From positions 22,473-86,472 of the forward strand of contig CAZDEU010000002.1 of assembly GCA_964504265.1 (NCBI GenBank): a stretch of 64,000 nucleotides of DNA, given 5' to 3'. The notes beneath the pieces were generated by a model. That model had not been told where the DNA came from, made no database searches, and saw nothing but the letters and a program-made list of their open reading frames with translations. This DNA comes from an uncultured Bacteroidales bacterium (lineage in GTDB: Bacteria; Bacteroidota; Bacteroidia; Bacteroidales; JAKIYJ01). Positions 3,157 to 30,972 of the stretch are shown piece by piece. The first letter of the stretch is position 1; each line of letters opens with the position of its first letter. Position numbers and translations under genes: made by a program.

Positions 3157-3265
3157 ACGTTAACTACAATTAAATCTTATCTATGATAGTACATGTAAAT
3201 TCAAATATTCGAATGTCATGCGATTAACTATTTTTAAAATAATCGAAAAATAATTAGTGAAAAGC

Positions 3266-3656: not shown

Positions 3657-3687
3657 CCCTTGTATTAATTTACAGGGGTTTCTTTTT
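3657..3687 (+). terminator. intrinsic terminator
   Basis: CCCTTGT (3657-3663) / ACAGGGG (3672-3678) stem followed by TTTCTTTTT. Confidence 0.65.
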
Positions 3688-4231
3688 GACTATATATCAC
3701 ATAATTTTAAATATTCGAATGTCATTGAGTTAATATACTTACAGATGTTAAAATCCTATATAAGTATCATTATCATTAGAGCAACGAATATTAGTCTAGC
3801 CAGCGTTCTACTGTTTCAAGGAAATTTCCGCATACGTATACTTTTGGTATTTGAATTTCAAAATTACTATAAAAATAGTGATTCGCTAATATATTGATAT
3901 CCAGATCTTAAATGCAAGTTAGATAATTTTATAAATATTTCCGCAGCTACGAACTTTGATTTTATTGCAATTCCATCCAGCATAATACTATTCCTCTTTA
4001 ACATCTCCGGCGGTTGGAAAGATCATTGCTAATTAGCTTACACAAAGTAGACTACGATGATAGCTCGTTGCGGCATAATATGATTTGTATATTTAGTTAG
4101 CATTGTTAGCGTTCAACTGTTGGATGCCGCAGAAAAATAATTCGAGAAATTGTTATATAGTGCCTGTAATAACTAACAATGATTTCAATATACACGGCAA
4201 TCTGATTGGTCCGACTTGCAATCACTAAAAA

Positions 4232-4313
4232 ATAAAAAATCGAATTTACCTACTGTACGATTCGATGATTTCAATCGATTCGAAGGAATTTTCTGCCAGA
4301 TACAAAGTATATA
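4232..4313 (+). repeat. degenerate direct repeat A, copy 1
   Basis: ATAAAAAATCGA ... GATTCGAAGGAATTTTCTGCCAGATACA aligns with copy 2 about 305 nt downstream. Confidence 0.6.
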
Positions 4314-4538
4314 CAACGGCGCCAATTAGTTACAATGATTAGATTAGCTTATGTAATTATACAGCAGTTAGTACTGATCATGCACCAAAAATTTTAAAAA
4401 TCTTACCAAAGTTTGACAACTAAATTTTACTTGCCATGTACATCACGCAGAAATTTCTTTCGAATCGAACTTAAAGTAAAGCTTGAAGTAAAATCATGAT
4501 CATTATATATAGCTACTTAAGCTAATATTATTTTTTTT

Positions 4539-4607
4539 ATAAAAAATCGATGCAGCTACGAAATCACTTTTTCACTTGATTCGAAGGATTTTCATGCTAG
4601 TTATACA
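4539..4607 (+). repeat. degenerate direct repeat A, copy 2
   Basis: ATAAAAAATCGA ... GATTCGAAGGATTTTCATGCTAGTTATACA. A third, weaker copy lies around 3925-3990. Confidence 0.6.
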
Positions 4608-4826
4608 TTATCTTATTTAACTGCAAGTAGTTACACTGGCTATAAAATGATTTATCAATCAGTCCACGCGTACGATATGCTTAACGATGCTATCTAGAAA
4701 GGTAGGCCTAGGCATAAAGTGACAATTATCTTAAGAAAATCAATTCCCAGATAGTTACGTGCATAGCTACCCTTGTAACTATTTAATACTGGCCGCATAA
4801 GAAAATACCCTGAGATATACAGATAA

Positions 4827-4880
4827 GTCTAAAAATAATTCCTAGTAGAATGCTAGATTCTTTATGGCTTAAATGCTAAC
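4827..4880 (+). repeat. direct repeat B, copy 1
   Basis: GTCTAAAAATAATTCCTAGTAGAATGCTAGATTCTTTATGGCTTAAATGCTAAC. Confidence 0.65.
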
Positions 4881-4973
4881 TCCGTCTGTGTAATAATAAG
4901 TTACAAGGGCAATGAATAAGATAACTAGCAATTTAAGCTCTGCCTCTAAATCTATGCAGCAGCACAATTATAT

Positions 4974-5026
4974 GTCTAAAATATTTTCCTAGGAGAATGC
5001 TAGTTCTTTTATGGCATTAATGCAAC
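4974..5026 (+). repeat. direct repeat B, copy 2
   Basis: GTCTAAAATATTTTCCTAGGAGAATGCTAGTTCTTTTATGGCATTAATGCAAC. About 85% identical to copy 1, 147 nt downstream. Confidence 0.65.
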
Positions 5027-5393
5027 ATATATAAATATCTATACATAATAAGTGTATAGCAGTTATTATATACTAACATGCATGCAACTACTTATGTATT
5101 TAGCATTTCTGAAAAATAATGCTAATTAGATTAAGTATTTCATGGTAAGTTGATTCTTAATTTTCCGATACGTGATGCAGGAAAGCTAATTCAGTACTTA
5201 AGTACTGAAATTATAATCAACTATTAACCAATCGACTAATCAATTTCATAACGTATCGTCTAACATGCGGAGATATCTTTGTTGCCGGCATGCTAATGTA
5301 GATATGGAAGAACCTATACTGATATAAAATAATTGTTAAATAATTAGGAATCAACAAATATATTCACTACATTTATCCTTTAAATTAAATAAT

Positions 5394-6221: not shown

Positions 6222-6277
6222 CAGTATTGCTAGCCTACTTCGCTAACAAAATTTATTTAAAATAAATCAGATTTCTC

Positions 6278-6308
6278 TTGGATTTCTGATAATAGCATAC
6301 TATCTTTA
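6278..6308 (+). promoter_or_regulatory. Bacteroidota-type promoter (-33 TTG, 20-nt spacer, -7 TAtcTTTA)
   Basis: cTTGgatttctgataatagcatacTATCTTTA. It lies inside the 45-nt block 6261-6305, which is repeated exactly at 10309-10353. Confidence 0.55.
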
Positions 6309-6331
6309 TGGCATAATTAAAAACAAAGATT

Positions 6332-6565
6332 ATGCAAGCAAATATCGAAAACTTCAAAGAAATGTTAAATAAAGCAAATGGTAATAAAGTAGAAATGCAA
6401 AAAGCATTTGACAGAATTACTTCTTATTTAGCTTCTTCTGTATTGGGTAGAGATTTTAACGAAACAGTTGAAAGTTATTTAAACAGAAAGCCAAATATTA
6501 AAGAAATACATGACTGGTCAAAGAAAGTAATAATAAGTCCAAATTTCACAATAATAGCAATATAA
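6332..6565 (+). CDS. hypothetical protein (77 aa)
   Basis: ORF 24 nt after the -7 box. Confidence 0.6.
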   Translation: MQANIENFKEMLNKANGNKVEMQKAFDRITSYLASSVLGRDFNETVESYLNRKPNIKEIHDWSKKVIISPNFTIIAI

Positions 6566-6768
6566 TGAAAAAGATAATTGACATACCAGAATATATAGTA
6601 AAAGACCTTAAAAAATTAGCGGTTGATGAAAATGTTGATTTAAAAAACTACATTCAAAACAAGCTAATAAAAATAGTCGAATTATCAAAAGTTAAATATT
6701 GTACTTGTGATAAAAATACAGATGGCAGCCAAAATAAAATATGTGATGGTGATTGTCTGTTTCATTAA
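6565..6768 (+). CDS. hypothetical protein with Cys-rich C-terminus (67 aa)
   Basis: Start overlaps the previous stop. The C-terminus reads CTCDKNTDGSQNKICDGDC. Confidence 0.6.
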   Translation: MKKIIDIPEYIVKDLKKLAVDENVDLKNYIQNKLIKIVELSKVKYCTCDKNTDGSQNKICDGDCLFH

Positions 6769-6774
6769 TATGAC

Positions 6775-6895
6775 TTATAACGGTGAGTATTGGCGTTGTT
6801 GCCATCATAGAACTTAATTAATAACACTAAAATATAAAATTATGGAAAACTTATCAGAAAATACGAAAGGCAATAACGCTAATACTGTGTTATCG
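6775..6895 (+). repeat. attC-like imperfect inverted repeat E0 (121 bp)
   Basis: R'' is TTATAAC (6775-6781) and R' is GTTATCG (6889-6895). Arms GAGTATTGGCG (6785-6795) and CGCTAATACT (6877-6886) pair over 10 bp including one G.T. Confidence 0.55.
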
Positions 6896-7042
6896 GCTGG
6901 CTATTCTTACAAAATAGGCAAATTTCAAATAATACTTGATGAAGATACTGAAGAATTGAAAATAATAGTACACACCAACAAAGATAGGATGACGATAAAA
7001 CCAAATACGGATAATAGTTGCACTCTTATAGCTTGCCGATAA
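6842..7042 (+). CDS. cassette ORF, hypothetical (66 aa; start uncertain)
   Basis: The ATG at 6842 lies in the apical loop of E0, and the ORF reads through the E0 R' box. The stop TAA (7040-7042) is embedded in the E1 R'' box. Confidence 0.4.
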   Translation: MENLSENTKGNNANTVLSAGYSYKIGKFQIILDEDTEELKIIVHTNKDRMTIKPNTDNSCTLIACR

Positions 7043-7164
7043 CGTTTTGCATAAGACCAGTAAAGGAATGCGAGATATGAACTATCAAGATAAACAACAG
7101 TTTGAACGGGCTGTAATGCTGAAATTACCGATACAACCTTTATTGGTTTTATGCGGTGTTACCG
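7037..7164 (+). repeat. attC-like imperfect inverted repeat E1 (128 bp)
   Basis: R'' is CGATAAC and R' is GTTACCG. Arms TTGCATAAGACCA (7046-7058) and TGGTTTTATGCGG (7144-7156) pair over 13 bp including 3 G.T. Confidence 0.6.
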
Positions 7165-7229
7165 CCCGTTTTTATTAATCTTTAAATCAATTTATTATAA
7201 GCAAAAAACTCGAAATATTAAAACAATCA

Positions 7230-7685
7230 TTGGCGAAAAAAGAACAGCAATTAAACGCCAAACTTGACCAACATTTTGCAACCGTAAAACAAGCAAACGG
7301 GCAACCGCTTAACGACAAAAGAAACGAACAAGCTACATTAAACAAGTGGGAGCGACAAAATGAAAGTATTAGAACAATGCAAAAAAGCATTGAAGCGACT
7401 AAACAGGCAATTGAAATTGAAGAAGGCAAAATAAGAGGAGTTGAACACGCTAATACTTTTATACCTGCTGAAATTCAAAAGCTGGTTGAAACTGGAGAAC
7501 TAATTCAATGGCGAAAACACCCACATACATTTTTTGTTGCTGGAGTTGATAAGGCTCGAATTGTTTGGGATGAAAAACGCAAAGTAGTTGCCCATAAGTT
7601 TGTCAGTGAAATAACTATTCAAGAACAGCGGGCAAAATTTGTCAGAATATACAATCCGCTGAACGCTCTTTTAAATGGGCGGTAA
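7230..7685 (+). CDS. cassette ORF, hypothetical protein (151 aa)
   Basis: Visibly more G+C-rich than the backbone (38% in 7231-7290). The stop TAA (7683-7685) lies inside the E2 R'' box CGGTAAC. Confidence 0.65.
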   Translation: MAKKEQQLNAKLDQHFATVKQANGQPLNDKRNEQATLNKWERQNESIRTMQKSIEATKQAIEIEEGKIRGVEHANTFIPAEIQKLVETGELIQWRKHPHTFFVAGVDKARIVWDEKRKVVAHKFVSEITIQEQRAKFVRIYNPLNALLNGR

Positions 7686-7812
7686 CGGCTGCGGCTAAAC
7701 TGCGTTGCCGATTAAAACGCAGAAACTTATCAAATTACAACAATGGACGAAAGAGATTATAAAGCTATGAATAAGCACGAAAACGGCAATGAAGTTTTAG
7801 CCGTTGTTAGCT
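7680..7812 (+). repeat. attC-like imperfect inverted repeat E2 (133 bp)
   Basis: R'' is CGGTAAC (7680-7686) and R' is GTTAGCT (7806-7812). Arms are CGGCTAAA (7692-7699) and TTTAGCCG (7796-7803). Confidence 0.5.
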
Positions 7813-8003
7813 GCTGGGCTGTATTATTACAATGGACGACAGGGTGTGAGGCGGATGCAGAATCAACGGAAGTAAAAGCTATATTTATGACTAAACAACA
7901 GGCTGATGAATATTGCAAAATACTAAAGCCTAAAATAAAATGGCATCAATATTATCAGGGCTGCTTAGAAGTTGAAGAAGTGCCTTTCGAGCCTTGCAGC
8001 TAA
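7743..8003 (+). CDS. cassette ORF, hypothetical (86 aa as tracked; in-frame ATG at 7887 would give 38 aa)
   Basis: The first 23 codons overlap the right arm and R' box of E2, so the true start may be downstream. The stop TAA (8001-8003) is embedded in the E3 R'' box. Confidence 0.45.
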   Translation: MDERDYKAMNKHENGNEVLAVVSCWAVLLQWTTGCEADAESTEVKAIFMTKQQADEYCKILKPKIKWHQYYQGCLEVEEVPFEPCS

Positions 8004-8126
8004 CGTTGACGGTAGCAGAAGTACGGGACTTAACCGAACAAAGCTATCCAGTAACAATGACCTTAATAAAATGCAGTACACTAACATAACCACTAACACC
8101 CGTATTACTGCTACCGTGTGTTAGGC
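7998..8126 (+). repeat. attC-like imperfect inverted repeat E3 (129 bp)
   Basis: R'' is AGCTAAC and R' is GTTAGGC. In the arms GACGGTAGCAGAAGTACGGG (8008-8027) and CCCGTATTACTGCTACCGTG (8099-8118), 17 of 20 positions are Watson-Crick, one is G.T and two are mismatched. Confidence 0.65.
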
Positions 8127-8139
8127 AACGTTTTTAATT

Positions 8140-8349
8140 ATGGAAGATTTAGTAAAAGCATTTCAGATTTTTTTAAAGTATTCGGATGATAAATATCCGA
8201 CACATTGTGAACATGATTATTTATACGTAAATGTTCATCCTGACAAAGTTTCTCAGGAAGATAAAGCAGAGTTAGAAAAACTTGGATTTATCATTGATGG
8301 TGAGTATGGAGGTGATGGTTTTGGCTCATTTAGGTTCGGTAGCTGTTAA
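8140..8349 (+). CDS. cassette ORF, hypothetical protein (69 aa)
   Basis: Starts 14 nt after the E3 R' box (..TTTTTAATTATG). Confidence 0.6.
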   Translation: MEDLVKAFQIFLKYSDDKYPTHCEHDYLYVNVHPDKVSQEDKAELEKLGFIIDGEYGGDGFGSFRFGSC

Positions 8350-8354
8350 ATGTT

Positions 8355-8488
8355 GCCTAACGGTACTGCGCTATAAAATCGTGCGGGATTTCGAAGCGCA
8401 AAATTATCAACCGAGTAGAAAATAACAATAGTAGTAAACCGCTTGCATACACTCTAAAACCCGCATGTTTTATGAGCGCATGTTAGGC
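8355..8488 (+). repeat. attC-like imperfect inverted repeat E4 (134 bp)
   Basis: R'' GCCTAAC matches RYYYAAC exactly and R' GTTAGGC matches GTTRRRY exactly. Arms TGCGCT/ATAAAA/CGTGCGGG pair with CCCGCATG/TTTTAT/AGCGCA, with bulges. Confidence 0.7.
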
Positions 8489-8504
8489 ACTGTACTTTTT
8501 AATT

Positions 8505-8804
8505 ATGAATAGAGTTGAAGAAATAAGAGAAATATTAAGAGAATTTGTTGAATATGATAAGGGTAAGCGTTTGAGACAAGAACTTAAAGACATAGCAGAT
8601 AAAACATATATTCAAAAATACTCTGATAAGGAGCAGATTGATTTTTTAGATAGACATGAAGCTTCAATAAGAAGTTTACATGCTCAATCAACAAATTTTC
8701 CGTATTATCTCGAAATGTTTACCGTTTTAACTCAACATATTTATGCTGATAATATTAGGCAAATTATTGATAAAGGAATAGATATTGAACGGGCACGGTC
8801 TTAG
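8505..8804 (+). CDS. cassette ORF, hypothetical protein (99 aa)
   Basis: Starts 17 nt after the E4 R' box. Confidence 0.6.
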   Translation: MNRVEEIREILREFVEYDKGKRLRQELKDIADKTYIQKYSDKEQIDFLDRHEASIRSLHAQSTNFPYYLEMFTVLTQHIYADNIRQIIDKGIDIERARS

Positions 8805-8810
8805 TATTGT

Positions 8811-8906
8811 GCCTAACGGCTGGCGGTATGGTTATATGTGCCTATCTACTGCCTGTCAATTTACCACAAACTTTTAAAGGCACATTAATTATACCGCTTG
8901 TTATAA
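8811..8906 (+). repeat. attC-like imperfect inverted repeat E5 (96 bp, short loop)
   Basis: R'' is GCCTAAC and R' is GTTATAA. Arms are GCGGTAT..ATGTGCCT (8823-8843) and AGGCACAT..ATACCGC (8878-8897). Confidence 0.6.
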
Positions 8907-8928
8907 GCTGTATTAAAAATTTTTAGCT

Positions 8929-9168
8929 ATGGATGCAGAAATTTTAAATTACCCAACAGAAACAGGTAAACCAAGAAACAATTCAAAACTTGCTTATGTA
9001 GATTGCTGCATGAGGCTTATGGACTGGCATAGACCATTTGAAGAAATGAGTAACGATGACTTAGATAGCTTATATTTTGTAGCTTTCAAAAGTTGGGCTT
9101 ATCATTTAACACGACAGGCTTATATTGATTACTTAAATAAATACAGGATAGAACGCTGTCCGTGTTAA
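8929..9168 (+). CDS. cassette ORF, hypothetical protein (79 aa)
   Basis: ORF between E5 and E6. Confidence 0.6.
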   Translation: MDAEILNYPTETGKPRNNSKLAYVDCCMRLMDWHRPFEEMSNDDLDSLYFVAFKSWAYHLTRQAYIDYLNKYRIERCPC

Positions 9169-9172
9169 TTGC

Positions 9173-9304
9173 GTATAACGCTATTGCGGTATGAAATGAA
9201 GCGGTGAACGGGCTGCTAATGTATCAACCGACACAGAATTACAAGCGAGTGATTAACTTGCAAAATGTACTTAACCCGCTTTGTTTTATGACCGCTTGTT
9301 AGCG
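9173..9304 (+). repeat. attC-like imperfect inverted repeat E6 (132 bp)
   Basis: R'' is GTATAAC and R' is GTTAGCG. Arms GCGGTATGAAATGAAGCGG and CCGCTTTGTTTTATGACCGC pair with G.T pairs. Confidence 0.65.
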
Positions 9305-9332
9305 GTAGTTATTAATTTAAAATCATTTAATT

Positions 9333-9560
9333 ATGAAAGAACTACTTATCAAATTAAAAATAGTGCAAGTCGTATCAAATGAGCAACGACATAAAGAAGG
9401 ATTGAAAAGATTAGGTAAAGGTTATTTTAAAGCTTATCGACTTAACCCATTCAATCCGCTGAGTTATATCCTTGTAGTAGTAACAATTCCAGTTTTATTA
9501 CTTATGTACGGTTTTGTTGGCTCATTTGAAAAGGCAATCAATCCGTTTCGGTGGGATTAA
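9333..9560 (+). CDS. cassette ORF, small membrane protein (75 aa)
   Basis: Hydrophobic segment LSYILVVVTIPVLLLMYGFVG. Lies between E6 and E7. Confidence 0.6.
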   Translation: MKELLIKLKIVQVVSNEQRHKEGLKRLGKGYFKAYRLNPFNPLSYILVVVTIPVLLLMYGFVGSFEKAINPFRWD

Positions 9561-9564
9561 TTAC

Positions 9565-9693
9565 CGCTAACGGTGAGCGTATGAAATCGAAAGGGATTAG
9601 AAAGCATATCACTATCCCACGATAAAACGTTTATAGAAATCACAGCACAACGCATACCACTGACCCCCTTTTGTTTTATACGCTGTGTTATAT
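9565..9693 (+). repeat. attC-like imperfect inverted repeat E7 (129 bp)
   Basis: R'' is CGCTAAC and R' is GTTATAT. Arms are GCGTATGAAATCGAAAGGG and CCCTTTTGTTTTATACGC. Confidence 0.65.
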
Positions 9694-9792
9694 GCTGCTT
9701 TTTAATTAGTTACAATCAAAGCACGGAGTGGGTGCGGAGTGCGGAGTGATAAAATATTTTCACTTTCATTGAAAAATAATTGATTTAAACTA

Positions 9793-9822
9793 TTGTTAAT
9801 TCAAAAATAAACCTTATCTTTA
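9793..9822 (+). promoter_or_regulatory. Bacteroidota-type promoter (-33 TTG, 19-nt spacer, -7 TAtcTTTA)
   Basis: TATTGTTAATTCAAAAATAAACCTTATCTTTATG, 24 nt before ATG 9846. Confidence 0.5.
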
Positions 9823-9845
9823 TGTCATAATTAATACTTACAATT

Positions 9846-10028
9846 ATGAATGCAACGATTGAAAAATTTCAGAAACAACAAATTGAAAAGGCTAATTTCA
9901 TTAAAGATAAAGCTCAGAAAGAAATTGAATCTTTAGAAGATGAGATATTAAGATTGAAAAAACAAATAAACGCTCAAAAATCGATAGTAAAACAGGCAAA
10001 TAAAGATATTCAACATTATTCAGAATGA
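9846..10028 (+). CDS. hypothetical coiled-coil protein (60 aa)
   Basis: Lys/Glu/Gln-rich, heptad-like translation. Confidence 0.55.
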   Translation: MNATIEKFQKQQIEKANFIKDKAQKEIESLEDEILRLKKQINAQKSIVKQANKDIQHYSE

Positions 10029-10183
10029 AAGGCGGCAAAAGAACAGGTGCAGGGAGAAAACCTTGCACCGATAAAAAACAGCAAATGACAATCTATGTTT
10101 TAACTTCTCAAATCGAAAAGTTAGGCAAAGATGCAATTCGTCAAGTATGCGAAAAAGCTATCAACGAAGCGGTTTTAAAGTAG
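10025..10183 (+). CDS. small basic protein (52 aa, not in ORF track)
   Basis: ATGA overlap with the upstream stop. Translation is MKGGKRTGAGRKPCTDKKQQMTIYVLTSQIEKLGKDAIRQVCEKAINEAVLK. The last base of the stop TAG (10181-10183) is the first base of GCATATAAC (10183-10191). Confidence 0.5.
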   Translation: MKGGKRTGAGRKPCTDKKQQMTIYVLTSQIEKLGKDAIRQVCEKAINEAVLK

Positions 10184-10184
10184 C

Positions 10185-10285
10185 ATATAACTATTATATA
10201 ATTGAATTCCTTTATAACTAATTGATTATAAATGAAAAAGGTATATCAACTTTAGGAAATTTTAAAAATATTCTTAAAGTTAGGA
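10185..10285 (+). repeat. possible degenerate attC-like element E8 (101 bp)
   Basis: GCATATAAC (10183-10191) is the exact complement of GTTATATGC (9687-9695, the E7 R' box). An R'-like GTTAGGA lies at 10279-10285 and the loop motif TATCAAC at 10244-10250. The arms are AT-rich and only weakly paired. Confidence 0.3.
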
Positions 10286-10308
10286 ATTATTCACATATAA
10301 CAATTCAA

Positions 10309-10353
10309 AATAAATCAGATTTCTCTTGGATTTCTGATAATAGCATACTATCT
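10309..10353 (+). repeat. exact 45-nt copy of 6261-6305 (promoter block)
   Basis: AATAAATCAGATTTCTCTTGGATTTCTGATAATAGCATACTATCT is identical in both places. Here the -7 box is degraded to TATCTAAT. Confidence 0.85.
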
Positions 10354-10498
10354 AATAGATGCTTTTTTAAACTTGAAGAAGCAATTCTTTATGCCATTGG
10401 TAGTAATGTTGGTAAACGTAATGACACTACTTTGTTAGTTCATATCGACACTTTTGTAACAATGATAACGAAAGACTAATTATTGTTGAGTAGCAATT

Positions 10499-10524
10499 AA
10501 ACCAGCGTAACTGCTGGTTTTTTA
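10499..10524 (+). terminator. intrinsic terminator
   Basis: AACCAGC (10500-10506) / GCTGGTT (10513-10519) stem followed by TTTTT. Confidence 0.65.
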
Positions 10525-10539
10525 ATGATCACTCCATGC

Positions 10540-10559
10540 AGCGATAAGCGCTTATCGCT
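10540..10559. repeat. perfect 20-bp palindrome AGCGATAAGC|GCTTATCGCT
   Basis: The same half-sites (AGCGATAA ... TTATCGCT) recur at 11590-11609. Confidence 0.7.
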
Positions 10560-10614
10560 CTTATTTAGATCAATTATAAATAATACTACAATTCAAAAAT
10601 ATCTTGCAAAAAGC

Positions 10615-11579: not shown

Positions 11580-12600
11580 TTGAAAATACAGCGATAATAA
11601 CTTATCGCTAATAACGGTTGCAGCTTAACAGTAAATTAGCACATAGCTACAAATTCATAAGAATGGCAATATACTTAAAAAGCAAACTTAGCCAGGGAAT
11701 ATTATAAGTTCAGCCGTTATTTTTTTATTATTAGTATACTTAATCGTTATTTTTATAAGTTTGAGATACAAATTAATAAATAGCAAAACAAATTGTTTCA
11801 GCAATGCACGCTGGTAATTTATAAGTCAAAAAATAAGTTCGTAGAGTTTGCAGAGAATTATTTATGCGGGTTTGAGGTGAATGTGGAAATGGGCAGGTGG
11901 TCTAATGTATACGTCAAATAAGAATCATTCTTGTTTAGGAATAATTCTTTACGCTTCACGTAGCTGCTTTATTTCCGCTTGCAGTAATTTTCGCTTGATT
12001 AGCTTGTATCTGCAAGTTTCTATTTTCACTTATTTCTATTTACTTATTGCTTAACATATAATACTTACCAGCAATTATAGTTTCTATTCTTTGCAATATT
12101 TTAACATATAAACCACCGTTTATATAAGTATCTGTTTATATGTTGACTGCTGGTTATACTGCCAGTTAGATTTTGGTAATTACATTGCTGAGTATGCTTA
12201 AGTTTTTATTAATTTTTATTTGATTTTATTTGTATATTATACTTACATTTGTTTTTAAATAAATTAATATTATGAAAATACATTATTAGAGTATTGATAA
12301 CAATGATAGCTCTTTAGAAAGTTACTGTGAGTATTTAATTAGGATAAGATTAGTTGTATTACTGTTACTAATTATGATACAGATACAGTTATATGGTTTG
12401 CCAGTAAAGCTATTATAGTTACGGATTGTATTTAAGGTTGAATATTATTTTATGCTAGCGCATAGTAGCAAAAATTATTAGTATAATTAGCATGTATTGC
12501 TTAAATAAAAATGATAATAATGCTAGTTACATGCTTAAAATATATGTCAAATTGTTTGTGCAAATCGAATTAATTTCTTATTTTTGAGATATTAAATTTT
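11580..12600. other. 1.0-kb ORF-free AT-rich tract with short iterated motifs
   Basis: TTTCTATT occurs at 12017, 12033 and 12081. GTTTATAT occurs at 12118 and 12134. There are hairpins at 11590-11609 and at 11978-11984/12010-12016. Confidence 0.6.
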
Positions 12601-14332: not shown

Positions 14333-15058
14333 CTAAAATTTTAGTTTTGATATTTTTTCCCAATCAATTCCTGGTGATAAGTTGTTTGGTTCACAGTGAG
14401 TGCAATAACCCGGAATACAAGAAATTAAATTACTTCCCCGTTTCCATAATTCCTGAAATTTATAATGATCAATTGGATTGGTTGTTTGGTCTAAATGTGT
14501 GAACATTTTATGAACATCAATATACTTTTTTAATGTTTTAAATTTACATGAATAAGTATCGCATGTTGATGGTGTAGTTCTCCAATGGATATTACCATCA
14601 AACAATATTGATGATTTTAAACCACGATACATTTCTGAATAATATTTATCAGGGTGATCATATAAAGTAAAGAAATCCGCATCTATAGCATTATGAGCAT
14701 GAAGCAAAACACTACTCCATCCAGGTACATGCAAGTAATCATCTTCCACAAAATATAAAATATCATCATCATTCCATTGCTGTTGTTCTGCAAACTCAAT
14801 CATTTTTAAATAACTTTTTGCACCAGTACCGCCTTGTATATTGTATATACGTGTATTTGGCCATTCAAAATCCTTCAAAAAATGTGCAGATATATCTCCA
14901 TCAAATAGTATTGATACGTCATATGTTCTGTTTTCAAGAGCAATTGTATGCATAAAATTATTGCAACAGTTTTGATATGAGAACCATTCAGGACGTTTTT
15001 TATTCACACTTTGTGGTGAATAATTACAATGTCTTTTTATTATATGTAGTTTTGCCAT
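14333..15058 (-). CDS. hypothetical protein, possible glycosyltransferase
   Basis: Acidic DxD-like motif ILYFVEDDYLH. It is the last gene of the sugar-modification cluster. Confidence 0.4.
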   Translation of the reverse strand: MAKLHIIKRHCNYSPQSVNKKRPEWFSYQNCCNNFMHTIALENRTYDVSILFDGDISAHFLKDFEWPNTRIYNIQGGTGAKSYLKMIEFAEQQQWNDDDILYFVEDDYLHVPGWSSVLLHAHNAIDADFFTLYDHPDKYYSEMYRGLKSSILFDGNIHWRTTPSTCDTYSCKFKTLKKYIDVHKMFTHLDQTTNPIDHYKFQELWKRGSNLISCIPGYCTHCEPNNLSPGIDWEKISKLKF

Positions 15059-15063
15059 AATTC

Positions 15064-15738
15064 CTAATGTATTTGCCAGTTTGTATTCAAAATATCACCA
15101 ATAACTTCAACAGTGCTTAATTTATCAATTGGTCGTTGATATATATGAACATTATGCATATCTTTTTTATATAACACTTCTATCATATAGTTTAAGCTAG
15201 TTGATACGGTGTGAATTTCACTTGCATTTTCAATAACTTTTGCCCAATCTAATAAAGTAAATCCGTTATAGTAATCAAGTTTTATTGCATTGGGGTTATG
15301 AATTGTATTTACTTTGTAATTTAATTTTGGATTAGCAAAATTGCAATTAACTAATATATATTCACTAATATCTTTCAAATTAAGCACATCATAATATAAT
15401 TTATTTTCTTTATCAATATTGCGTTTCCACTTTAATTTTTTCCATTCATTATGATCTAATTGTACTAAATTATATTTTGCTGACATTGTATATTTATGAT
15501 TTAATATACTTTGTGCATTTCTAAAAGGTATTTGGGTATATTTCCCATTACATGAAATATTCCATTTAGATAAAGGAATAAAATTAATATCAAAATAATC
15601 TTGTAACCAAAAAAATTCATCTTGTATTGGCCAGATTACACTATTTTCTTTTTGCAATTCAATTGCAATTGGAGTTAAAAATAATATATCACCAATACCA
15701 AATGGTTGATCAATTACATACTTCATATTGATATCCAA
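15064..15738 (-). CDS. hypothetical protein (GT9-like N-terminal motif?)
   Basis: FGIGDILFLTPIAIEL resembles the heptosyltransferase N-terminus, but the protein is short (224 aa). Confidence 0.3.
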   Translation of the reverse strand: MDINMKYVIDQPFGIGDILFLTPIAIELQKENSVIWPIQDEFFWLQDYFDINFIPLSKWNISCNGKYTQIPFRNAQSILNHKYTMSAKYNLVQLDHNEWKKLKWKRNIDKENKLYYDVLNLKDISEYILVNCNFANPKLNYKVNTIHNPNAIKLDYYNGFTLLDWAKVIENASEIHTVSTSLNYMIEVLYKKDMHNVHIYQRPIDKLSTVEVIGDILNTNWQIH

Positions 15739-16516
15739 AATTAGCTAATTTTTTAACTTTAATATTTTGATCAAATATATCTTGCAAATAATCTAATGTA
15801 CATTGATTAAACATTTCAGGTTGAAGTTTGTTCTTTCCATGGCCACCTGCATGATGTATAATTTTAATTATTTTATTATTAAGCTGCAACCCATTTGGTG
15901 TAACTATTATATCTTTTAAACTATCCCAATGAGTAACATTACCAGACAAGCAACTTACACCATAATAAACATTTGTATCAATTGCATCTAATATTTTACA
16001 TTTAAATTTGCCACTTGCAACAATCATATTTAATACAGTTTGTTCTTGAAAACTATATTTATTAGCACGTGCAATATTTTCATTTACCCAATCAATAATA
16101 AATTGTTTATTTGTAATAGCAGTAAATCCGGCATTGACATATAATTGAGGATTTAATCCTTCTATATCACAAATGTATGTATCTTTACCTGCTTTATTAT
16201 AATCATTGTTATTTCTAACGCATAAAACATCATAATTACTATATTCAAATAATTCAGTTAATGGTGTAGTAATAATGCAATCGGCATCAAAATGAACCAC
16301 CATATCATATTCATCAATTAATATATTTGATATAACTGGGTGTATTGTATTCCAGTTAAATTGATTATTTAATGCAAATATACTATTAATCATTTTATCA
16401 CCAAATACATAAAAAGGAATATCAGGATGAAATCTTTTAGCTGATTTTACTAATTTATCAGCACCTATGCTATAAAACCAATTATCTGAAACGTGTGTGC
16501 AAAAAGCTATTTTCAT
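15710..16516 (-). CDS. putative DxD glycosyltransferase (GT8-like), paralog 1
   Basis: FHPDIPFYVF and HFDADCII. The N-terminal half aligns with the adjacent ORF 16513-17283. Confidence 0.5.
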   Translation of the reverse strand: MKIAFCTHVSDNWFYSIGADKLVKSAKRFHPDIPFYVFGDKMINSIFALNNQFNWNTIHPVISNILIDEYDMVVHFDADCIITTPLTELFEYSNYDVLCVRNNNDYNKAGKDTYICDIEGLNPQLYVNAGFTAITNKQFIIDWVNENIARANKYSFQEQTVLNMIVASGKFKCKILDAIDTNVYYGVSCLSGNVTHWDSLKDIIVTPNGLQLNNKIIKIIHHAGGHGKNKLQPEMFNQCTLDYLQDIFDQNIKVKKLANFGYQYEVCN

Positions 16517-17283
16517 CCTAAAATTGAAGTTTCAATAAAATGAACAACATTTCCATTAAATAATTCACTTGGTGCAGGTTTATTAACACCACCTCTAGCA
16601 AAATGATATGCTTTAACTATTTTACCATCTAATTCTAAATGATCATTAACTACTTCAATTTGCTTTTCTCTACCAAGAGATGAACAACCATAATAGCATT
16701 TAAAATCAGGATTATTATATTCAAAATGGCCGTCTAATACTTTAAGCTTATATGGCAGCATATGGCACAATATATTTAATACATCATTTTCTTTATTGCC
16801 AAATATATCTGAATATTTTAAGCTAGCATATTCATATTGATTCCAAAATAATTTAGATGTACTAGCAATTAAGCCACCTTGTATATATTTTTCATATGGA
16901 ATAAATGTATTACTTGAAAATGTTCCACAAGTATTTGCAAATGTATTAGTTCCTAATGCTGAATTTAACCAAACGTTGTAATTTGATGGAATTGCAACAT
17001 CATAATCACCTTCAAGTATTTCTGTTAATGGTGCTAATATCAAATGATCTGCATCAATATTAACAACTAATTCATAATCATTATATAATAACTTAGCAAA
17101 TGATGCTTTTGAATTATAAAAATTTAATCTATTATCGGTTGCAAATAGATCGTTTATTTCTTTTTGCTTAAACACTACTAAATCTATATCAGGATGAAAA
17201 TGTTTAAAACTTTTGATAAAATCATCAGTTCTGCATCCCTTGTAGTGGGAATCTCCTATTATTGTATAAAAACATGTTTTCAT
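16513..17283 (-). CDS. putative DxD glycosyltransferase (GT8-like), paralog 2
   Basis: FHPDIDLVVF and NIDADHLI. Tandem paralog of 15710-16516. Confidence 0.5.
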   Translation of the reverse strand: MKTCFYTIIGDSHYKGCRTDDFIKSFKHFHPDIDLVVFKQKEINDLFATDNRLNFYNSKASFAKLLYNDYELVVNIDADHLILAPLTEILEGDYDVAIPSNYNVWLNSALGTNTFANTCGTFSSNTFIPYEKYIQGGLIASTSKLFWNQYEYASLKYSDIFGNKENDVLNILCHMLPYKLKVLDGHFEYNNPDFKCYYGCSSLGREKQIEVVNDHLELDGKIVKAYHFARGGVNKPAPSELFNGNVVHFIETSILG

Positions 17284-17284
17284 T

Positions 17285-17992
17285 TTAATTTATTTTAATT
17301 GTACAAAACATTCCATCTGCATTAAAATATTCAACATTATAGCCATATTTACGAAATAATGATGAATAAAGGTCTCTATATATATCAAAAGTAGTATCAT
17401 TTATTTCATGTACTTCTATTAATATTTTACAAACATGTTTGCTTAAAAATTCTATTGTTTTTTCAATTAAAACAGTTAGTTCAGAACCTTCTATATCCAT
17501 TTTTAAAAAATCAATTTTAGATAAATTAAATTTTAACATAATATCCGGAATTGTTATTGAATTAACTGTAATTTTATTAGAACCATGCCCACATTGCAAT
17601 GAATTCGTTGTTGTGTTTGATGAATATTCATAAAAATCAATAATGCCAGTTTTATTTGCTACTGCAGCTTGTAATCTTATTACATTATTAAACTTTCCAG
17701 TAATTTGTTCATTTAAAGTAAAATGATGTGGGGTTGGTTCAACTGTTATAATTTTATCAGCCCATGGAGTTACGTGTAAAGCAAATAATCCAATATTACC
17801 ACCCAAATCTAAAATAATTTTATCATCTTTCGAAATATAATTAGCATAATAATTAAGGTCATTAAATTGGTGTAATATTTCTTGTGTACAATTTTTAATA
17901 TCATTAAAATGATCAATTAATTCTGGTGTATTTAATTCAATAATATAATCAGTTCCATCAATTAATTTCTCTATTACTTTATCATCATTCAT
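17285..17992 (-). CDS. SAM-dependent methyltransferase (FkbM-like)
   Basis: ILDLGGNIGLFALH (SAM motif I) and LKMDIEGSE, which is typical of the FkbM family. Confidence 0.7.
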   Translation of the reverse strand: MNDDKVIEKLIDGTDYIIELNTPELIDHFNDIKNCTQEILHQFNDLNYYANYISKDDKIILDLGGNIGLFALHVTPWADKIITVEPTPHHFTLNEQITGKFNNVIRLQAAVANKTGIIDFYEYSSNTTTNSLQCGHGSNKITVNSITIPDIMLKFNLSKIDFLKMDIEGSELTVLIEKTIEFLSKHVCKILIEVHEINDTTFDIYRDLYSSLFRKYGYNVEYFNADGMFCTIKIN

Positions 17993-18456
17993 CTCGTTAA
18001 GTTTAAATAAGTTGGTAGTCCATTGTATAAGAAAGCATTAAATTTTGCAGTCAAATCTTCATTGTCGACTGGGTATATGCTTAATATGTTCTTAAAATTA
18101 TAATATGATTGATCTTCATAATGTGAATAACCATCATGCTTATAATCATCACCGCGACCTCCGCCAAGTAATTTAATTGGTATATTTTCATGGTCAACAT
18201 ACGTCCTTAGCAATTCAAATGGTCTTAATATTAAAAAAGGAGATATACTATAAGCAATTGGAATCTTTCCTGAATCTGCTAATCCTATAGCCATTCCAAT
18301 CATTAATTGCTCTGCTGCACCTACATTAATAAAATTATTAGGAAAATCTTTTTTAATATCATCCCACATTTTATACCCTAAATCAGCTGTAATTACAATA
18401 ATATTATTATCTTTTTCAATAGCATTATATAGCAATTGTTTTGCTAATTTCCTCAT
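17989..18456 (-). CDS. transketolase-family protein, C-terminal (pyrimidine-binding) subunit
   Basis: ITADLGYKMW..FINVGAAEQLMIGMAIGLA..GKIP. Confidence 0.75.
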   Translation of the reverse strand: MRKLAKQLLYNAIEKDNNIIVITADLGYKMWDDIKKDFPNNFINVGAAEQLMIGMAIGLADSGKIPIAYSISPFLILRPFELLRTYVDHENIPIKLLGGGRGDDYKHDGYSHYEDQSYYNFKNILSIYPVDNEDLTAKFNAFLYNGLPTYLNLTR

Positions 18457-19114
18457 ATTCAGAATTATTTAATATTTTATAATGAGCATCAATACATTTG
18501 CCATTTAAATTGATTGATTTTAATATTGGATGATTCATATCAAATCTATGTATATTAATAGTTGGTAAAAATGCACGTAATCTTTTTGCTAATACATCAT
18601 AATCAATATATCTATATGCTGAAGTACCATTATAATTGACATGTATTTCAATATTATTAATTTTGTTATCACTAATAAATTGTAATGATTCCCAAACTAT
18701 TCCTTCACTACATTCACCATCTGAAATAATACAATATACTTTTCTATATTTATCAGCAACAGCAAAACCAGTTGCAATAGCAATACCACAACCAAGACTG
18801 CCGGTTGATGCATCTATATAAAAGCTTTTAGTTGGATGTATGCCATTTTCTAAATAATGAAATTCAGCATTATAATATGGTTTGCAAAAATATTCTAATA
18901 CAACATATAATGCTAAGCCAGCATGACCATTTGATAATACAAATTTATCTTTCTTTAAATCAATTTTTTTATAAATATTATATATGATTGGTAATGAAGA
19001 TATGCAGCTATTTAAATGAGATAAATTATGTTTATAACTTATATCAATTATGCGTTTTTCTAACTGTTTAATTATTTTTTTGTCGTTGAATTTGAATGTA
19101 TTTTTTAATTCCAT
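18425..19114 (-). CDS. transketolase-family protein, N-terminal (TPP-binding) subunit
   Basis: SNGHAGLALYVVLE, TGSLGCGIAIATGFA and ISDGECSEG. Confidence 0.8.
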   Translation of the reverse strand: MELKNTFKFNDKKIIKQLEKRIIDISYKHNLSHLNSCISSLPIIYNIYKKIDLKKDKFVLSNGHAGLALYVVLEYFCKPYYNAEFHYLENGIHPTKSFYIDASTGSLGCGIAIATGFAVADKYRKVYCIISDGECSEGIVWESLQFISDNKINNIEIHVNYNGTSAYRYIDYDVLAKRLRAFLPTINIHRFDMNHPILKSINLNGKCIDAHYKILNNSEYEEISKTIAI

Positions 19115-19931
19115 TTTTTAAATGAGTGCTAAATTGAAAATCATAACAGGAAATAGCATAATCCATATCAGCAACCCAATTGTTATTATCAAATACTCTT
19201 AATTGTTTTGCTTTCTTATATTGTAAATTATAATTGTATATTTCTTTAAAAATATCAAACACTTCATAATTTGAAGTTTTAATACCGGTTCCAAAATTAA
19301 CAATATCGCCGGCAGCCTTTGTGCGATTACTAAACATTATATTAATTATATTTGTAACTACATCATCAATATAAATAAAATCATGTGTACCTTCTGATAT
19401 GCTAGGTTCTATATTATTTTCAAAACAATTATATAATGTAGGAATAAATCTGTGTGCAGGTTCATGATTACCATAAACTGAAAATGGACGTATTGTTACA
19501 ATTGGTTTTTTAAATGCAGTTGAATAATCTTTGCAAAGTAATGTTGCTGTATGTTTTGTTACTTCATACATTGTCCTTGGTTTGCAAATTGACGTTTCTT
19601 TCATTGGTTCTGTTTGATAACCATATTCTGAAGAAGATCCAATATTTACAAATAATTTATAATTAACATTTCTTGAAGCTTCAAGCAATTTATATGTGAA
19701 TTCAACATTTGATTTAAACATTTTATGTTCATCATATATTTCAGCAGCGCAGTGAATAATATAATCAGGTTTAAATAAATCAAAATATGACATATTTGAT
19801 GCATCACTATGATTATTAAAATCATATTGCCTTGATATATTGCCAATTACAGCGTCAGGGTCAATTAATTTAATTCTTTCAATTAAATTTTTGCCAATAA
19901 AGCCGGTACCGCCAGTTATAACGTATCTCAT
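19068..19931 (-). CDS. NAD-dependent sugar epimerase/dehydratase (extended SDR)
   Basis: VITGGTGFIGKNL Rossmann motif and a YxxxK-type YEVTK. Confidence 0.85.
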   Translation of the reverse strand: MRYVITGGTGFIGKNLIERIKLIDPDAVIGNISRQYDFNNHSDASNMSYFDLFKPDYIIHCAAEIYDEHKMFKSNVEFTYKLLEASRNVNYKLFVNIGSSSEYGYQTEPMKETSICKPRTMYEVTKHTATLLCKDYSTAFKKPIVTIRPFSVYGNHEPAHRFIPTLYNCFENNIEPSISEGTHDFIYIDDVVTNIINIMFSNRTKAAGDIVNFGTGIKTSNYEVFDIFKEIYNYNLQYKKAKQLRVFDNNNWVADMDYAISCYDFQFSTHLKNGIKKYIQIQRQKNN

Positions 19932-20431
19932 TGTTTTTCTCCTACAACCATGAATGAATTATTTAAATCAACTCCACTTGCAAATATATTAACATAACCA
20001 CGTTGTTGCATGTAATCTGTTATAATTTGTGGAGTAAATATATGCAAATGTTTTGTATTGTTCCAAGGACGCCAATATTCTTGGCTGTAATCAGGTAAAT
20101 ATAAAAATAATATTCCACCAGATTTTAGATTTTGCCACCAATAGTCCATAACATCAACCCAACTATTTCCATCCAGGTGTTCCAAGCAGTGACTGCTATA
20201 TATATAATCTAATCCTCCAATTTTATGTGGAATATTCATTGCATGCCATTCGTTACCAAACTCAATATCAATTGGAAATGCACCAGGAAATGCCCAATCC
20301 TTTTTCTTGCAACCAATATCTGCCCCATATCCTTTACAAAAATGTTTTGCATATGGAATAGCAAATTGACTTGCATTTCCTTCTGCTTGAAAATGTGGAT
20401 AATTTTTTCCTTTATAATTAATTAACTCCAT
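19928..20431 (-). CDS. class I SAM-dependent methyltransferase
   Basis: GADIGCKK and SSHCLEHL motifs, with a GGILFLYLP post-I region. Confidence 0.6.
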   Translation of the reverse strand: MELINYKGKNYPHFQAEGNASQFAIPYAKHFCKGYGADIGCKKKDWAFPGAFPIDIEFGNEWHAMNIPHKIGGLDYIYSSHCLEHLDGNSWVDVMDYWWQNLKSGGILFLYLPDYSQEYWRPWNNTKHLHIFTPQIITDYMQQRGYVNIFASGVDLNNSFMVVGEKQ

Positions 20432-20826
20432 TATTTATTAAAATGTGAAAGTTCATGTTCAATATTACGATTTAATGCAGCATCTTCAGTAAATTTAGCA
20501 GGATATCTTTTTTGTAGTTTTTCAATATTTCCTTCCATTATATCATTTAATGTTGTTTGCAATACATTAACTGCTACTGCTATATACCACATTACATCAC
20601 CAGTTTCTTCTTTTATATTGATAATATCAATTGGTTTGCCATAAAAAATATGCTTTTTTAATTGGTCAACAAATTCACCACTTTCTGTTGCTAATCCCAT
20701 TGCTGCATGTAATAATCTTACTGTTTCAGGATTTTGTAACCTTTGCATGATAATATTCATATCAGCTGATTCAGTGATTCTTGCTAAATTAGCATAATTT
20801 TCTGATGTAACTTTAGATTGTTTCAT
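20431..20826 (-). CDS. mazG: MazG-like nucleoside triphosphate pyrophosphohydrolase
   Basis: GLATESGEF and EETGDVMWYIAVA (EExxD metal motif). Confidence 0.8.
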   Translation of the reverse strand: MKQSKVTSENYANLARITESADMNIIMQRLQNPETVRLLHAAMGLATESGEFVDQLKKHIFYGKPIDIINIKEETGDVMWYIAVAVNVLQTTLNDIMEGNIEKLQKRYPAKFTEDAALNRNIEHELSHFNK

Positions 20827-21445
20827 AAAAACTGTTTTGTTTGCGTTGTCTAATAATATCTTTTGTATGATTTAAATAAAATAAAGGATTATTTTGATCA
20901 AATCTTGTAATTGAATTAAATCCAGCTACATGTTCATGTATAACACCTTCCCATTTTATTTCTTTTTTATTTTTGTATAAACGATATTGATAATCTGGAA
21001 AATTTACATAGCCATTAACATCAACAATCCAATTCCACTTCTTAATATCCGCAGGTGTTATACCGTTAACGATATTAATTCTTGGAATTCCAAATACTTC
21101 AATATTATTATTTGCTTCAAGTATTTGTTTAATATTTGCAAATAGATTAACATCATCAATTAATTCATCAGCATCAATATGAAATATATAATCACCAGAA
21201 CATAGTTTAGATGCATAATTCCTTTGGTTAGCAAAATCTTTATTAAGTGGATTACAATCTATTATAATATTTTCAAATCCATCAACTAATTTTTTTAAAT
21301 CATAATATGCAGAATCAAATTCTAAACCATCATATAAAATTATTATTTCATCATTAATATCCTTATAATCTTTCAGTTGACGAAGTAATCCAGTTAATTC
21401 TTTGTAATCATTTTGATTATATAATATAACATAACTTATTTTCAT
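20813..21445 (-). CDS. family 2 glycosyltransferase
   Basis: ISYVILYNQND N-terminus and HIDADE DxD motif. Confidence 0.7.
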   Translation of the reverse strand: MKISYVILYNQNDYKELTGLLRQLKDYKDINDEIIILYDGLEFDSAYYDLKKLVDGFENIIIDCNPLNKDFANQRNYASKLCSGDYIFHIDADELIDDVNLFANIKQILEANNNIEVFGIPRINIVNGITPADIKKWNWIVDVNGYVNFPDYQYRLYKNKKEIKWEGVIHEHVAGFNSITRFDQNNPLFYLNHTKDIIRQRKQNSFYETI

Positions 21446-30744: not shown

Positions 30745-30972
30745 TTATTTTGGTATTGATTCTTCTAAAACTTCACCGCATTGCCCGCATTCAAACACTT
30801 GCACTGGTAATATTGATTCTTTACCAGCTAATAATGCTGATACTTTCCTCAATAAAAATACAGTTATAAATCTATCGTGCCCACATGCTTTACATACAAT
30901 TGGGGTTGTTTCGTCTAATGAAATATTAAAATTCTTGTTGTCCATATATGTCTTCTTTTTTATTTTTATCAA
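30745..30972 (-). CDS. zinc-ribbon protein (75 aa)
   Basis: CKACGH ... CGQCGE. Overlaps the GroEL 3' end. Confidence 0.5.
   Translation of the reverse strand: MIKIKKKTYMDNKNFNISLDETTPIVCKACGHDRFITVFLLRKVSALLAGKESILPVQVFECGQCGEVLEESIPK

Follow-up and report, generated by a model that had tools for sequence, protein, structure and literature searches.

The window analysed here, 64,000 nucleotides of contig CAZDEU010000002.1 from an uncultured Bacteroidales bacterium (assembly GCA_964504265.1, positions 22,473–86,472), contains phage sequence in which eight hairpin elements (E0–E7) are interleaved with small open reading frames (ORFs) between 6.78 and 10.19 kb, all on the + strand and each running from a 5′ TAACG to a 3′ TGTTA. 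With moderate confidence, we read this region as an array of eight mobile, trans-mobilised cassettes, built on attC-like hairpins and working on the gene-sense strand. A unit consists of a hairpin and the ORF downstream of it and has TAAC at either end on the ORF-sense strand, as follows from the extent of a homologous unit in another viral contig, from the ends of a common methyltransferase cassette, and from the orientation of the ORFs and the position of start codons in the hairpin loops. The strongest support for the cassette reading, overlooked in the first-pass annotation of this DNA, is the complementarity between the sequences flanking the boxes at the two ends of a unit. That annotation had proposed attC-like sites bounding cassettes of an integron-like array; its hairpin sites, its discrete cassettes and, now, their complementary ends are borne out by the analysis, whereas a canonical integron array is not.

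Structure of the hairpin family

A hairpin scan anchored on TAAC/GTTA returned exactly eight elements in the whole 64 kb, and none in the 100 dinucleotide-preserving shuffles of positions 6500–10500 that served as control. Six window elements were aligned with long-form members of other loci, 45 diverse sequences in all; from this alignment a consensus structure was derived by hand and a covariance model (R1) was built, with E0 and E5 kept outside the training set. R1 scores E0–E7 at 37–87 bits, all on the + strand, with E-values of 1e-10 to 1e-17 for seven elements and 3e-6 for E5; it finds nothing comparable elsewhere in the 64 kb or on the - strand, the runner-up being a 20-bit hairpin at 11608–11708. 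The positions first assigned to E0–E7 agree with these results to within about 3 nt, but of a suggested ninth element (E8, 10185–10285) only a TAAC at 10188–10191 with its flank at 10178–10187 is real, and R1 does not detect it.

The consensus begins with a 5-bp box helix, in which TAACG pairs with TGTTA and closes on an invariant G·T, continues with a spacer of unequal length on its two sides (about 5 nt at 5′ vs 1–2 nt at 3′), and ends in a stem of about 22 bp with an A-rich loop, element sizes across the family being 49–135 nt. In the 45-member alignment 90.5% of the cells assigned to pairs are indeed paired, a share that falls to 64% on shuffling and to about 40% when the partners are slid, and compensatory double changes fill 266 cells vs 86 expected, confirming the initial impression that structure is kept more than sequence. 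Elements of one array share about five invariant nucleotides per end, with a mean column identity of 52–59%, and the fold z-scores of single window elements are modest (-1.3 to -3.6). The boxes, initially described as RYYYAAC and GTTRRRY, retain their AAC and GTT cores, since TAAC(G) and (T)GTTA are invariant across 98 elements; the four adjoining bases are cassette-specific and not limited to RRRY/RYYY. No extrahelical (bulged) base of the attC type is conserved in the 45-member alignment. In its place G·T wobbles are fixed at two stem positions, including one next to the box, and one stem position is G·T in 41 of the 45 sequences.

No Rfam family matches at its gathering score anywhere in the window, and only chance-level matches appear at E <= 10 in 6500–10600. 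A signal scan found neither sigma-70 promoter-like nor intrinsic terminator-like signals to be enriched at the elements. RNAalifold, applied to the eight elements of the window as aligned by MAFFT alone, yielded no structure and was superseded by the 45-sequence alignment with its hand-derived structure.

Unit boundaries and strand

The viral contig L133 matches the window at 91% identity over positions 7040–7686, a span that comprises exactly a TAAC, the E1 body, a 151-aa ORF and the next TAAC; on both flanks of this span the two sequences are unrelated, and no E2 body follows it in L133. For a methyltransferase cassette common in related loci, 62 pairwise alignments place the start at TAAC, and the five cases with a conserved gene 3′ end place the end at the next TAAC. 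ORFs between elements lie on the sense strand in 49 of 52 intervals. The order 'ORF first, then site' given in the first-pass annotation must therefore be reversed, since homology breakpoints and TAAC-to-TAAC units show the hairpin to travel with its downstream ORF. These comparisons show that unrelated phages have exchanged units, the breakpoints lying within TAAC.

Of the two strands, the sense strand gives the more stable fold in 87 of 98 elements (p = 4e-15); it reads TAAC-G...T-GTTA, as does the bottom (recombined) strand of attCaadA7. For the latter we rely on an oligonucleotide in the supplement of the phage attC survey by Qi et al., discussed below, which we take to be the bottom strand on the basis of its known sequence. 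The oligonucleotide listed in the same position for P12002L_attC1, a predicted site of Polaribacter phage P12002L, is the gene-sense strand of that phage. Because its units run from TAAC to TAAC and its better-folding sense strand is bottom-like, the array looks like an integron array read on the recombining strand, with the genes encoded on that same strand.

In one pair of loci the ORF is common to both, and the upstream body has diverged with compensatory changes in the stem. The 151-aa ORF also has more distant homologues, four ordinary genes that lack elements; two of them end in ...GGTAAC or ...GATTAAC, so that a terminal box can derive from the TAA stop codon of the gene itself. The ORF of unit 3 likewise has a homologue in the 735-kb phage LR756501 that is an ordinary gene with no flanking elements.

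Complementarity between unit ends

Across each ORF, the flank after the GTTA box and the flank ahead of the next TAAC box are reverse complements of each other; the 3′ end of an ORF is complementary over 10–12 nt to the stretch just past the GTTA box. In the window, all eight junctions form helices of 13–16 bp, including that of E7 with a terminal box lacking a hairpin body (10178–10191). When the 8 nt that follow GTTA are compared with the reverse complement of the 8 nt ahead of the next TAAC, 52 adjacent pairs drawn from many loci give 6.0 matches out of 8, vs 2.6 for random pairs and 2.8 for the two flanks of one and the same element, and at position 7 of the flank G always stands opposite T. 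Methyltransferase cassettes exhibit compensatory changes at ends some 750 nt apart, GCGGTAGT/ATTACCGC in one case vs GTGGCAGT/ATTGCCAC in the other. Complementarity between the ends of one cassette is a defining property of integron cassettes, and the array possesses it.

Two other interpretations of the flanks were considered and rejected. Insertion of hairpin bodies in the manner of miniature inverted-repeat transposable elements disagrees with the flanks of each element, which form neither direct nor inverted repeats (the 2.8 of 8 above), and with the joint movement of bodies and downstream ORFs. RNase III-type processing at the unit-end helix disagrees with the location of its 5′ arm, within coding sequence and downstream of the start codon.

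Start codons within the hairpin loop

In 31 of 52 units from related loci, the first in-frame ATG lies within the loop of the upstream element, 45–65 nt before GTTA. These units employ all three reading frames, indicating that DNA and not a peptide is conserved. Relative to the start, A is enriched at positions -3, -4, -5, -11 and -12, and A-rich starts free of a Shine-Dalgarno sequence fit known translation initiation in Bacteroidota. In a second role, the loop may provide a captured gene with a portable, Shine-Dalgarno-free translation start, and the design is a candidate expression module of this kind. At the other end of the unit, as already recognised in the first-pass annotation, the ORFs that end at E1, E2 and E3 use as their stop codon the TAA contained in the TAAC box.

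Distribution and cargo

Searched by BLAST, the region matches element bodies of Cellulophaga phage phi17:1 and of an uncultured phage of 462 kb (LR756500), both of whose genomes harbour an array of the same kind; E0 is 82% identical to an element of LR756500, with homology bounded at both boxes, and E2 is 74% identical to an element of phi17:1. A 15-nt pattern taken from E2 retrieves many viral contigs, and R1 finds 59 significant elements in 100 loci, several of them with arrays of 6–8. Phage P12002L contains short forms (49–58 nt) beside methyltransferase genes, and its P12002L_attC1 is a member of the family. The array of LR756500 (L002, 7130–9624) consists of at least seven AT-rich elements that obey the same rule of flank complementarity and are missed by R1 at E < 1e-3; the family is therefore broader than R1 captures. 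Carriers include myoviruses, siphoviruses and jumbo phages, and the family is found mainly in phages that infect, or seem to infect, Bacteroidota. The common factor is the host group, known for phi17:1 and P12002L and likely for the phage of the window.

Among 185,579 species genomes, a two-part family-specific pattern occurs in only seven contigs, mostly contigs of Bacteroidota-type metagenome-assembled genomes (MAGs). One Algibacter sp. contig (NZ_CANLZX010000004.1, 239 kb; L128, 5067–5201) has a solo element of the methyltransferase type among chromosomal genes, next to an M42 peptidase, a protein with a type IX secretion signal and a DUF4294 protein, with no array or phage genes in the 8 kb examined.

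The cargo that could be identified in related loci consists mostly of DNA methyltransferases of several classes, and clustering of the ORFs from 20 array loci produced only methyltransferases and singletons. The cargo ORFs of the window have no significant family match. BLASTP among the window, phi17:1 and P12002L revealed no shared protein, although the three have the element family in common.

A Pfam screen of all window ORFs of 120 aa or longer (50 in number) revealed no tyrosine, serine or Y1 recombinase domain, in agreement with the first-pass annotation, which had found no integrase, and no integrase appears in the annotation of the complete phi17:1 and P12002L genomes. A phage recombinase shared between carriers emerged neither from BLASTP of the three phages nor from ORF clustering of the 20 array loci, and in bacterial and MAG contigs the genes beside arrays (by Pfam) are unrelated DDE or IS30 transposases, a primase-polymerase and housekeeping genes. 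The lack of shared proteins and of an integrase in these screens supports action in trans.

Proposed mechanism and alternative explanations

A unit on the sense strand is composed of a TAAC box, a hairpin body, a GTTA box and one ORF, and is closed by the next TAAC. In the mechanism proposed for its mobilisation, this strand, when single-stranded during phage replication or recombination, would fold into the hairpin, and a structure-specific recombinase provided in trans would cut after TAA in the 5′ boxes of two sites and exchange strands. The logic would be that of IntI and attC in integrons, or of Xer and the CTX phage, but with the ORFs on the recombining strand. Most likely the enzyme would be a host tyrosine recombinase, an HUH-type enzyme being less likely. 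Excision would yield a circle in which the two ends of the unit form a perfect 14-bp helix below the hairpin, and insertion would take place at another TAAC, often the TAA stop codon of a gene. A wider proposal, somewhat short of probable in our judgement, is that Bacteroidota phages share a sense-strand 'phage integron' of their own, which doubles as a portable translation start and is driven by a recombinase other than IntI, be it a host Xer/Int-type protein, an HUH enzyme or an unrecognised phage protein.

Several observations weigh against the array being one of trans-mobilised cassettes. Homologues of the E0 and E2 bodies are bounded at both boxes and joined to different ORFs, so that exchange also occurs at GTTA and the unit is not absolute. 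Neither a circle, an empty site nor a recent polymorphism between near-identical genomes was seen, the collections searched holding no close relative. IntI1, which recombined five of six phage attC sites tested, failed on the sixth, P12002L_attC1, the sole member of the family among them (Qi et al. 2023, PMC9892861), and almost no integrons are reported in Bacteroidetes by the IntegronFinder 2 paper (PMC9024848). No recombinase for the elements was identified anywhere, the window being only part of the phage genome, and the recombination chemistry is consequently pure inference. Finally, the sense-strand G·T wobbles and the start codon in the loop suit a function at the RNA level equally well.

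Such a function is the core of one alternative, according to which the elements are intercistronic mRNA hairpins concerned with start codon display, transcript stability or read-through. Their shuffling would then be a by-product of general phage recombination, or of template switching at the boxes, as proposed for the promoter early stem-loop (PeSL) elements, and would require no dedicated recombinase; indeed, none has been found. Hairpins that bring direct repeats together are a classic substrate of replication slippage, and the TAAC repeats juxtaposed by the hairpins would suit it. The strand that folds better is the transcribed one, with fixed wobbles of the G·U type, and most units place the start codon in an A-rich loop. 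The setting is likewise compatible, an early operon of a T4-like phage surrounded by promoter repeats of 98% identity, and PeSL shuffling is documented (PMC2839356, PMC4122927). Nevertheless, about five invariant nucleotides per end, at a mean column identity of 52–59%, offer too little for homologous recombination, and breakpoints fall exactly at TAAC in dozens of comparisons. The elements have no Rfam match and no sigma-70 promoter or intrinsic terminator signal. The unit-end helix, moreover, encloses the ORF and is kept by compensatory change even though its 5′ arm lies within coding sequence, in all three frames, which makes an RNA role for this helix unlikely. Altogether we regard the RNA explanation as unlikely.

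An ordinary cluster of attC sites lacking integron-integrases (CALIN), in which genuine cassettes with canonical attC sites were acquired from a bacterial integron and are recombined by an IntI of the host, appears to us quite unlikely. It accounts well for the AAC/GTT boxes, for a hairpin of 49–135 nt with an unpaired spacer and for cassette-specific complementarity around the boxes, and a breakpoint in the 5′ box of the folding strand agrees with IntI chemistry; a family member was called attC by HattCI, and IntI1 recombined the five other phage attC sites. It sits poorly with a family pattern so rare among bacterial species genomes, with no integrase beside the occurrences examined, in a phylum with almost no reported integrons, and with ORFs that, in contrast to those of canonical cassettes, are encoded on the recombining strand and frequently begin within the site. 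Conserved extrahelical bases are missing, the 3′ spacer has only 1–2 nt, the cargo of related loci is mostly DNA methyltransferases with that of the window lacking significant family matches, and P12002L_attC1 was missed by the Infernal step and not recombined by IntI1. Non-autonomous single-strand transposons of the IS200/IS605 or the repetitive extragenic palindrome (REP) and palindrome-associated transposable element (PATE) types, in which a Y1 HUH enzyme would recognise the hairpin and let the adjacent GTTA guide cleavage of both TAACs, would explain a strand-specific hairpin, the same tetranucleotide at both unit ends with no target duplication beyond, and a single GTTA at the hairpin foot able to pair with either TAAC; the window also holds a TnpB (OrfB_IS605) gene at 27348–28559. 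IS200/IS605 elements, however, have hairpins at both ends and no long terminal inverted repeats, as opposed to one hairpin per unit here, no Y1 transposase occurs among the window ORFs screened or in the annotation of phi17:1 and P12002L, and the TnpB gene is without ends resembling the elements. We consider this explanation very improbable. Chance inverted repeats or plain transcription terminators, which would agree with the modest fold z-scores and with T-runs after some elements, are refuted by the absence of hits in 100 shuffles, the E-values (1e-10 to 1e-17, and 3e-6 for E5), the strong covariation, the recurrence of the family in many other phages and a terminator scan that finds none at the elements.

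Should the 'phage integron' proposal hold, methyltransferases and ORFan genes would spread by this route between unrelated lytic phages. The swapping of small accessory genes by lytic phages is largely unexplained beyond homologous recombination, and the array offers a precise unit of exchange, one hairpin with one gene bounded by TAAC, in phages that have no proteins in common. Phages use DNA methyltransferases against host restriction, and since units in related loci often carry such genes the system could matter for the arms race between phage and host. An integron-like logic would also be extended to an integron-poor phylum with gene polarity reversed, pointing to a recombinase yet to be identified. 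As a caution, attC-like matches in phages should not all be classed as IntI substrates.

Layout of the array and its genomic context

All features of the array region lie on the + strand. An early-promoter-like repeat (6255–6322, direct-repeat families D1 and D3) precedes the array operon, and between it and E0 are two small ORFs outside any cassette (6332–6565 and 6565–6768) without a significant family match. E0 (6778–6892; 72.5 bits with R1) holds in its loop the start codon of the 66-aa ORF of unit 0 (6842–7042), which stops at the TAA of the next TAAC box. E1 (7040–7161; 68.1 bits), shared with L133 along with its downstream ORF, is followed by the ORF of unit 1 (7197–7685, 151 aa from a TTG at 7230), also terminated by the TAA of the next box, and E2 (7683–7809; 87 bits) again holds a start codon in its loop, that of the 86-aa ORF of unit 2 (7743–8003). 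Further along are E3 (8001–8123; 79.4 bits) with a 69-aa ORF (unit 3, 8140–8349), E4 (8358–8485; 66.1 bits, fold z-score -3.6) with a 99-aa ORF (unit 4, 8505–8804), the short-form E5 (8814–8903; 37 bits) with a 79-aa ORF (unit 5, 8929–9168), and E6 (9176–9301; 56.4 bits) with a 75-aa ORF (unit 6, 9333–9560). E7 (9568–9690; 71.9 bits) heads unit 7, whose cargo (9691–10187) includes its own promoter-like copy (9772–9836) and two ORFs (9846–10028 and 10025–10183). The right end of the array is the terminal box AAGTAGCATATAAC (10178–10191), devoid of a hairpin body and perfectly paired with the flank of the E7 GTTA box, and a second copy of a 51-nt promoter-like repeat follows at 10303–10353. The ORFs at 6332–6562 (flanking) and 8505–8801 (cassette) have no relatives, and megablast found no close relative of the window phage in the collections searched. 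GC content is 0.31–0.40 in the array vs 0.25–0.29 in the flanks, a difference that points to a foreign origin.

In viral contigs L133–L136 and L139, homologues of the 151-aa ORF of unit 1 start with ATG (MSKKLEILK...). The window has ATA at the corresponding positions 7197–7199, leaving the TTG at 7230 as the sole remaining start, and the window copy may either be inactive or rely on an unusual start.

The two copies of the 51-nt repeat (6255–6305 and 10303–10353) are 98% identical and 4,048 bp apart, with the whole cassette block between them. They belong to a 65-nt family with the pattern AAAAATAATTG...GCTTGTGTA...TACTATCTTTA...ATAATTAAAA, six copies of which, probably early promoters of the phage, are found in the first 11 kb (at 2083, 3246, 5325, 6258, 9772 and 10868). 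Recombination between the near-identical copies could delete or transfer the entire block in the manner of PeSLs.

Downstream of the array, a + strand hairpin, AATAACGGTTGCAGCTTA...TAAGTTCAGCCGTTATT followed by a T-run (11608–11719), reaches 20 bits with R1 (E = 0.02) and ends in CGTTA instead of TGTTA; it is probably a family-like terminator or a decayed solo element. Two + strand stretches of the early region (3660–5390, about 1.7 kb, and 11720–12600, about 0.9 kb) contain no ORF of at least 120 aa, each come after a terminator-like hairpin and have no Rfam or tRNA match; they could be non-coding RNAs or decayed genes. The motif AAATATTCGAATGTCAT occurs twice, at 3203–3219 and 3709–3725.

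By Pfam the phage is a T4-like myovirus, with tail sheath, tail tube and baseplate proteins; its sheath protein shares 45% identity with the counterparts in one Microcystis and one Flavobacterium phage. Its other genes encode UvsX/RecA, gp32, a clamp loader, ribonucleotide reductase, a full-length chaperonin of the Cpn60/GroEL type and a long sugar and nucleotide-sugar modification block that contains glycosyltransferases, an NAD epimerase, FkbM and other methyltransferases, split transketolase-like subunits and MazG; the block and the chaperonin occupy 14333–25179 and 30926–32566, on the - strand. The TnpB-like ORF at 27348–28559 (- strand, 403 aa), with OrfB_IS605 and Cas12f1-like TNB domains, is located amid replication genes of this lytic-looking phage, only about 25 nt from the next gene and with no adjacent TnpA. 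It was considered as a link to single-strand transposition and set aside, no ends related to the elements being seen.

Comparison with known systems

Cassette arrays of this sort had been thought undescribed in phages by the first-pass annotation, a view contradicted by the survey of Qi et al. 2023 (PMC9892861), which screened 10,705 phage genomes and reported three complete integrons and 17 CALINs, one of them in P12002L and including a member of the present family. In that work P12002L_attC1 is a prediction of HattCI only, not picked up by the Infernal step (PMC9892861). The second site of this phage, the IntI1-active P12002L_attC2 (L132, 29175–29243, + strand), was considered for membership and rejected, as it was predicted on the strand opposite to the genes and does no more than take in the end box of a family cassette. 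Its GTTAGGC box is complementary to the TAAC that terminates the cassette with methyltransferase gp35, and the published P12002L CALIN therefore mixes a family element with a site formed on a family end box. Phage CALINs are thus already known; a literature search returned no paper on the present element family, its polarity or its start-codon-in-loop design.

The resemblance to attC sites and CALINs is extensive. Both feature imperfect hairpins with terminal boxes of invariant AAC and GTT, an unpaired spacer between box helix and inner stem, sizes within 49–135 nt and structure conserved above sequence, and in both a unit has one ORF, units form tandem same-strand arrays, cassette ends are complementary and the crossover falls in the 5′ box of the better-folding strand. 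Arrays with no linked integrase are common ground as well, and P12002L_attC1 is already listed as a phage attC. The differences concern polarity, since ORFs here lie on the folding, bottom-like strand with the site before its ORF, often enclosing the start codon, whereas an attC site lies 3′ of its ORF and recombines on the strand antisense to it, as well as fine structure. Only TAAC/GTTA is fixed, in place of RYYYAAC/GTTRRRY, the box helix extends to 13–16 bp, the 3′ spacer has 1–2 nt vs about 5, and fixed G·T wobbles replace the conserved extrahelical bases of attC. The family is, in addition, nearly confined to viral contigs of an integron-poor phylum, and its tested member is not an IntI1 substrate.

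With IS200/IS605, PATE and REP elements the array shares strand-specific hairpins, a tetranucleotide as cleavage or target site, action in trans and the lack of target duplication; it departs from them in its single hairpin per unit, long terminal inverted repeats, arbitrary ORF cargo and lack of a detected Y1 transposase. The forked hairpin attP(+) of the Xer-dependent CTX phage and the pdif modules illustrate how a folded single strand can mimic a recombinase site, how a host recombinase can act in trans and how gene modules can be flanked by inverted sites. In the elements, by contrast, neither a dif-like 11-6-11 layout nor sequence similarity past TGTTA was found.

The PeSLs of T4-type phages, for which both shuffling and mini-circles are documented (Arbiol 2010, PMC2839356; Comeau 2014, PMC4122927), are similar in being short repeated motifs beside small accessory ORFs, located in the hyperplastic early regions of T4-like phages, and in marking the borders of modular gene exchange. 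A PeSL, however, combines a promoter with a terminator and recombines by homology on the strength of high sequence identity, while the present elements carry no promoter or terminator signal, share about 5 nt per end, possess cassette-specific terminal inverted repeats and occur in unrelated types of phage. What is PeSL-like in the window is the pair of 51-nt promoter repeats that brackets the cassette block.

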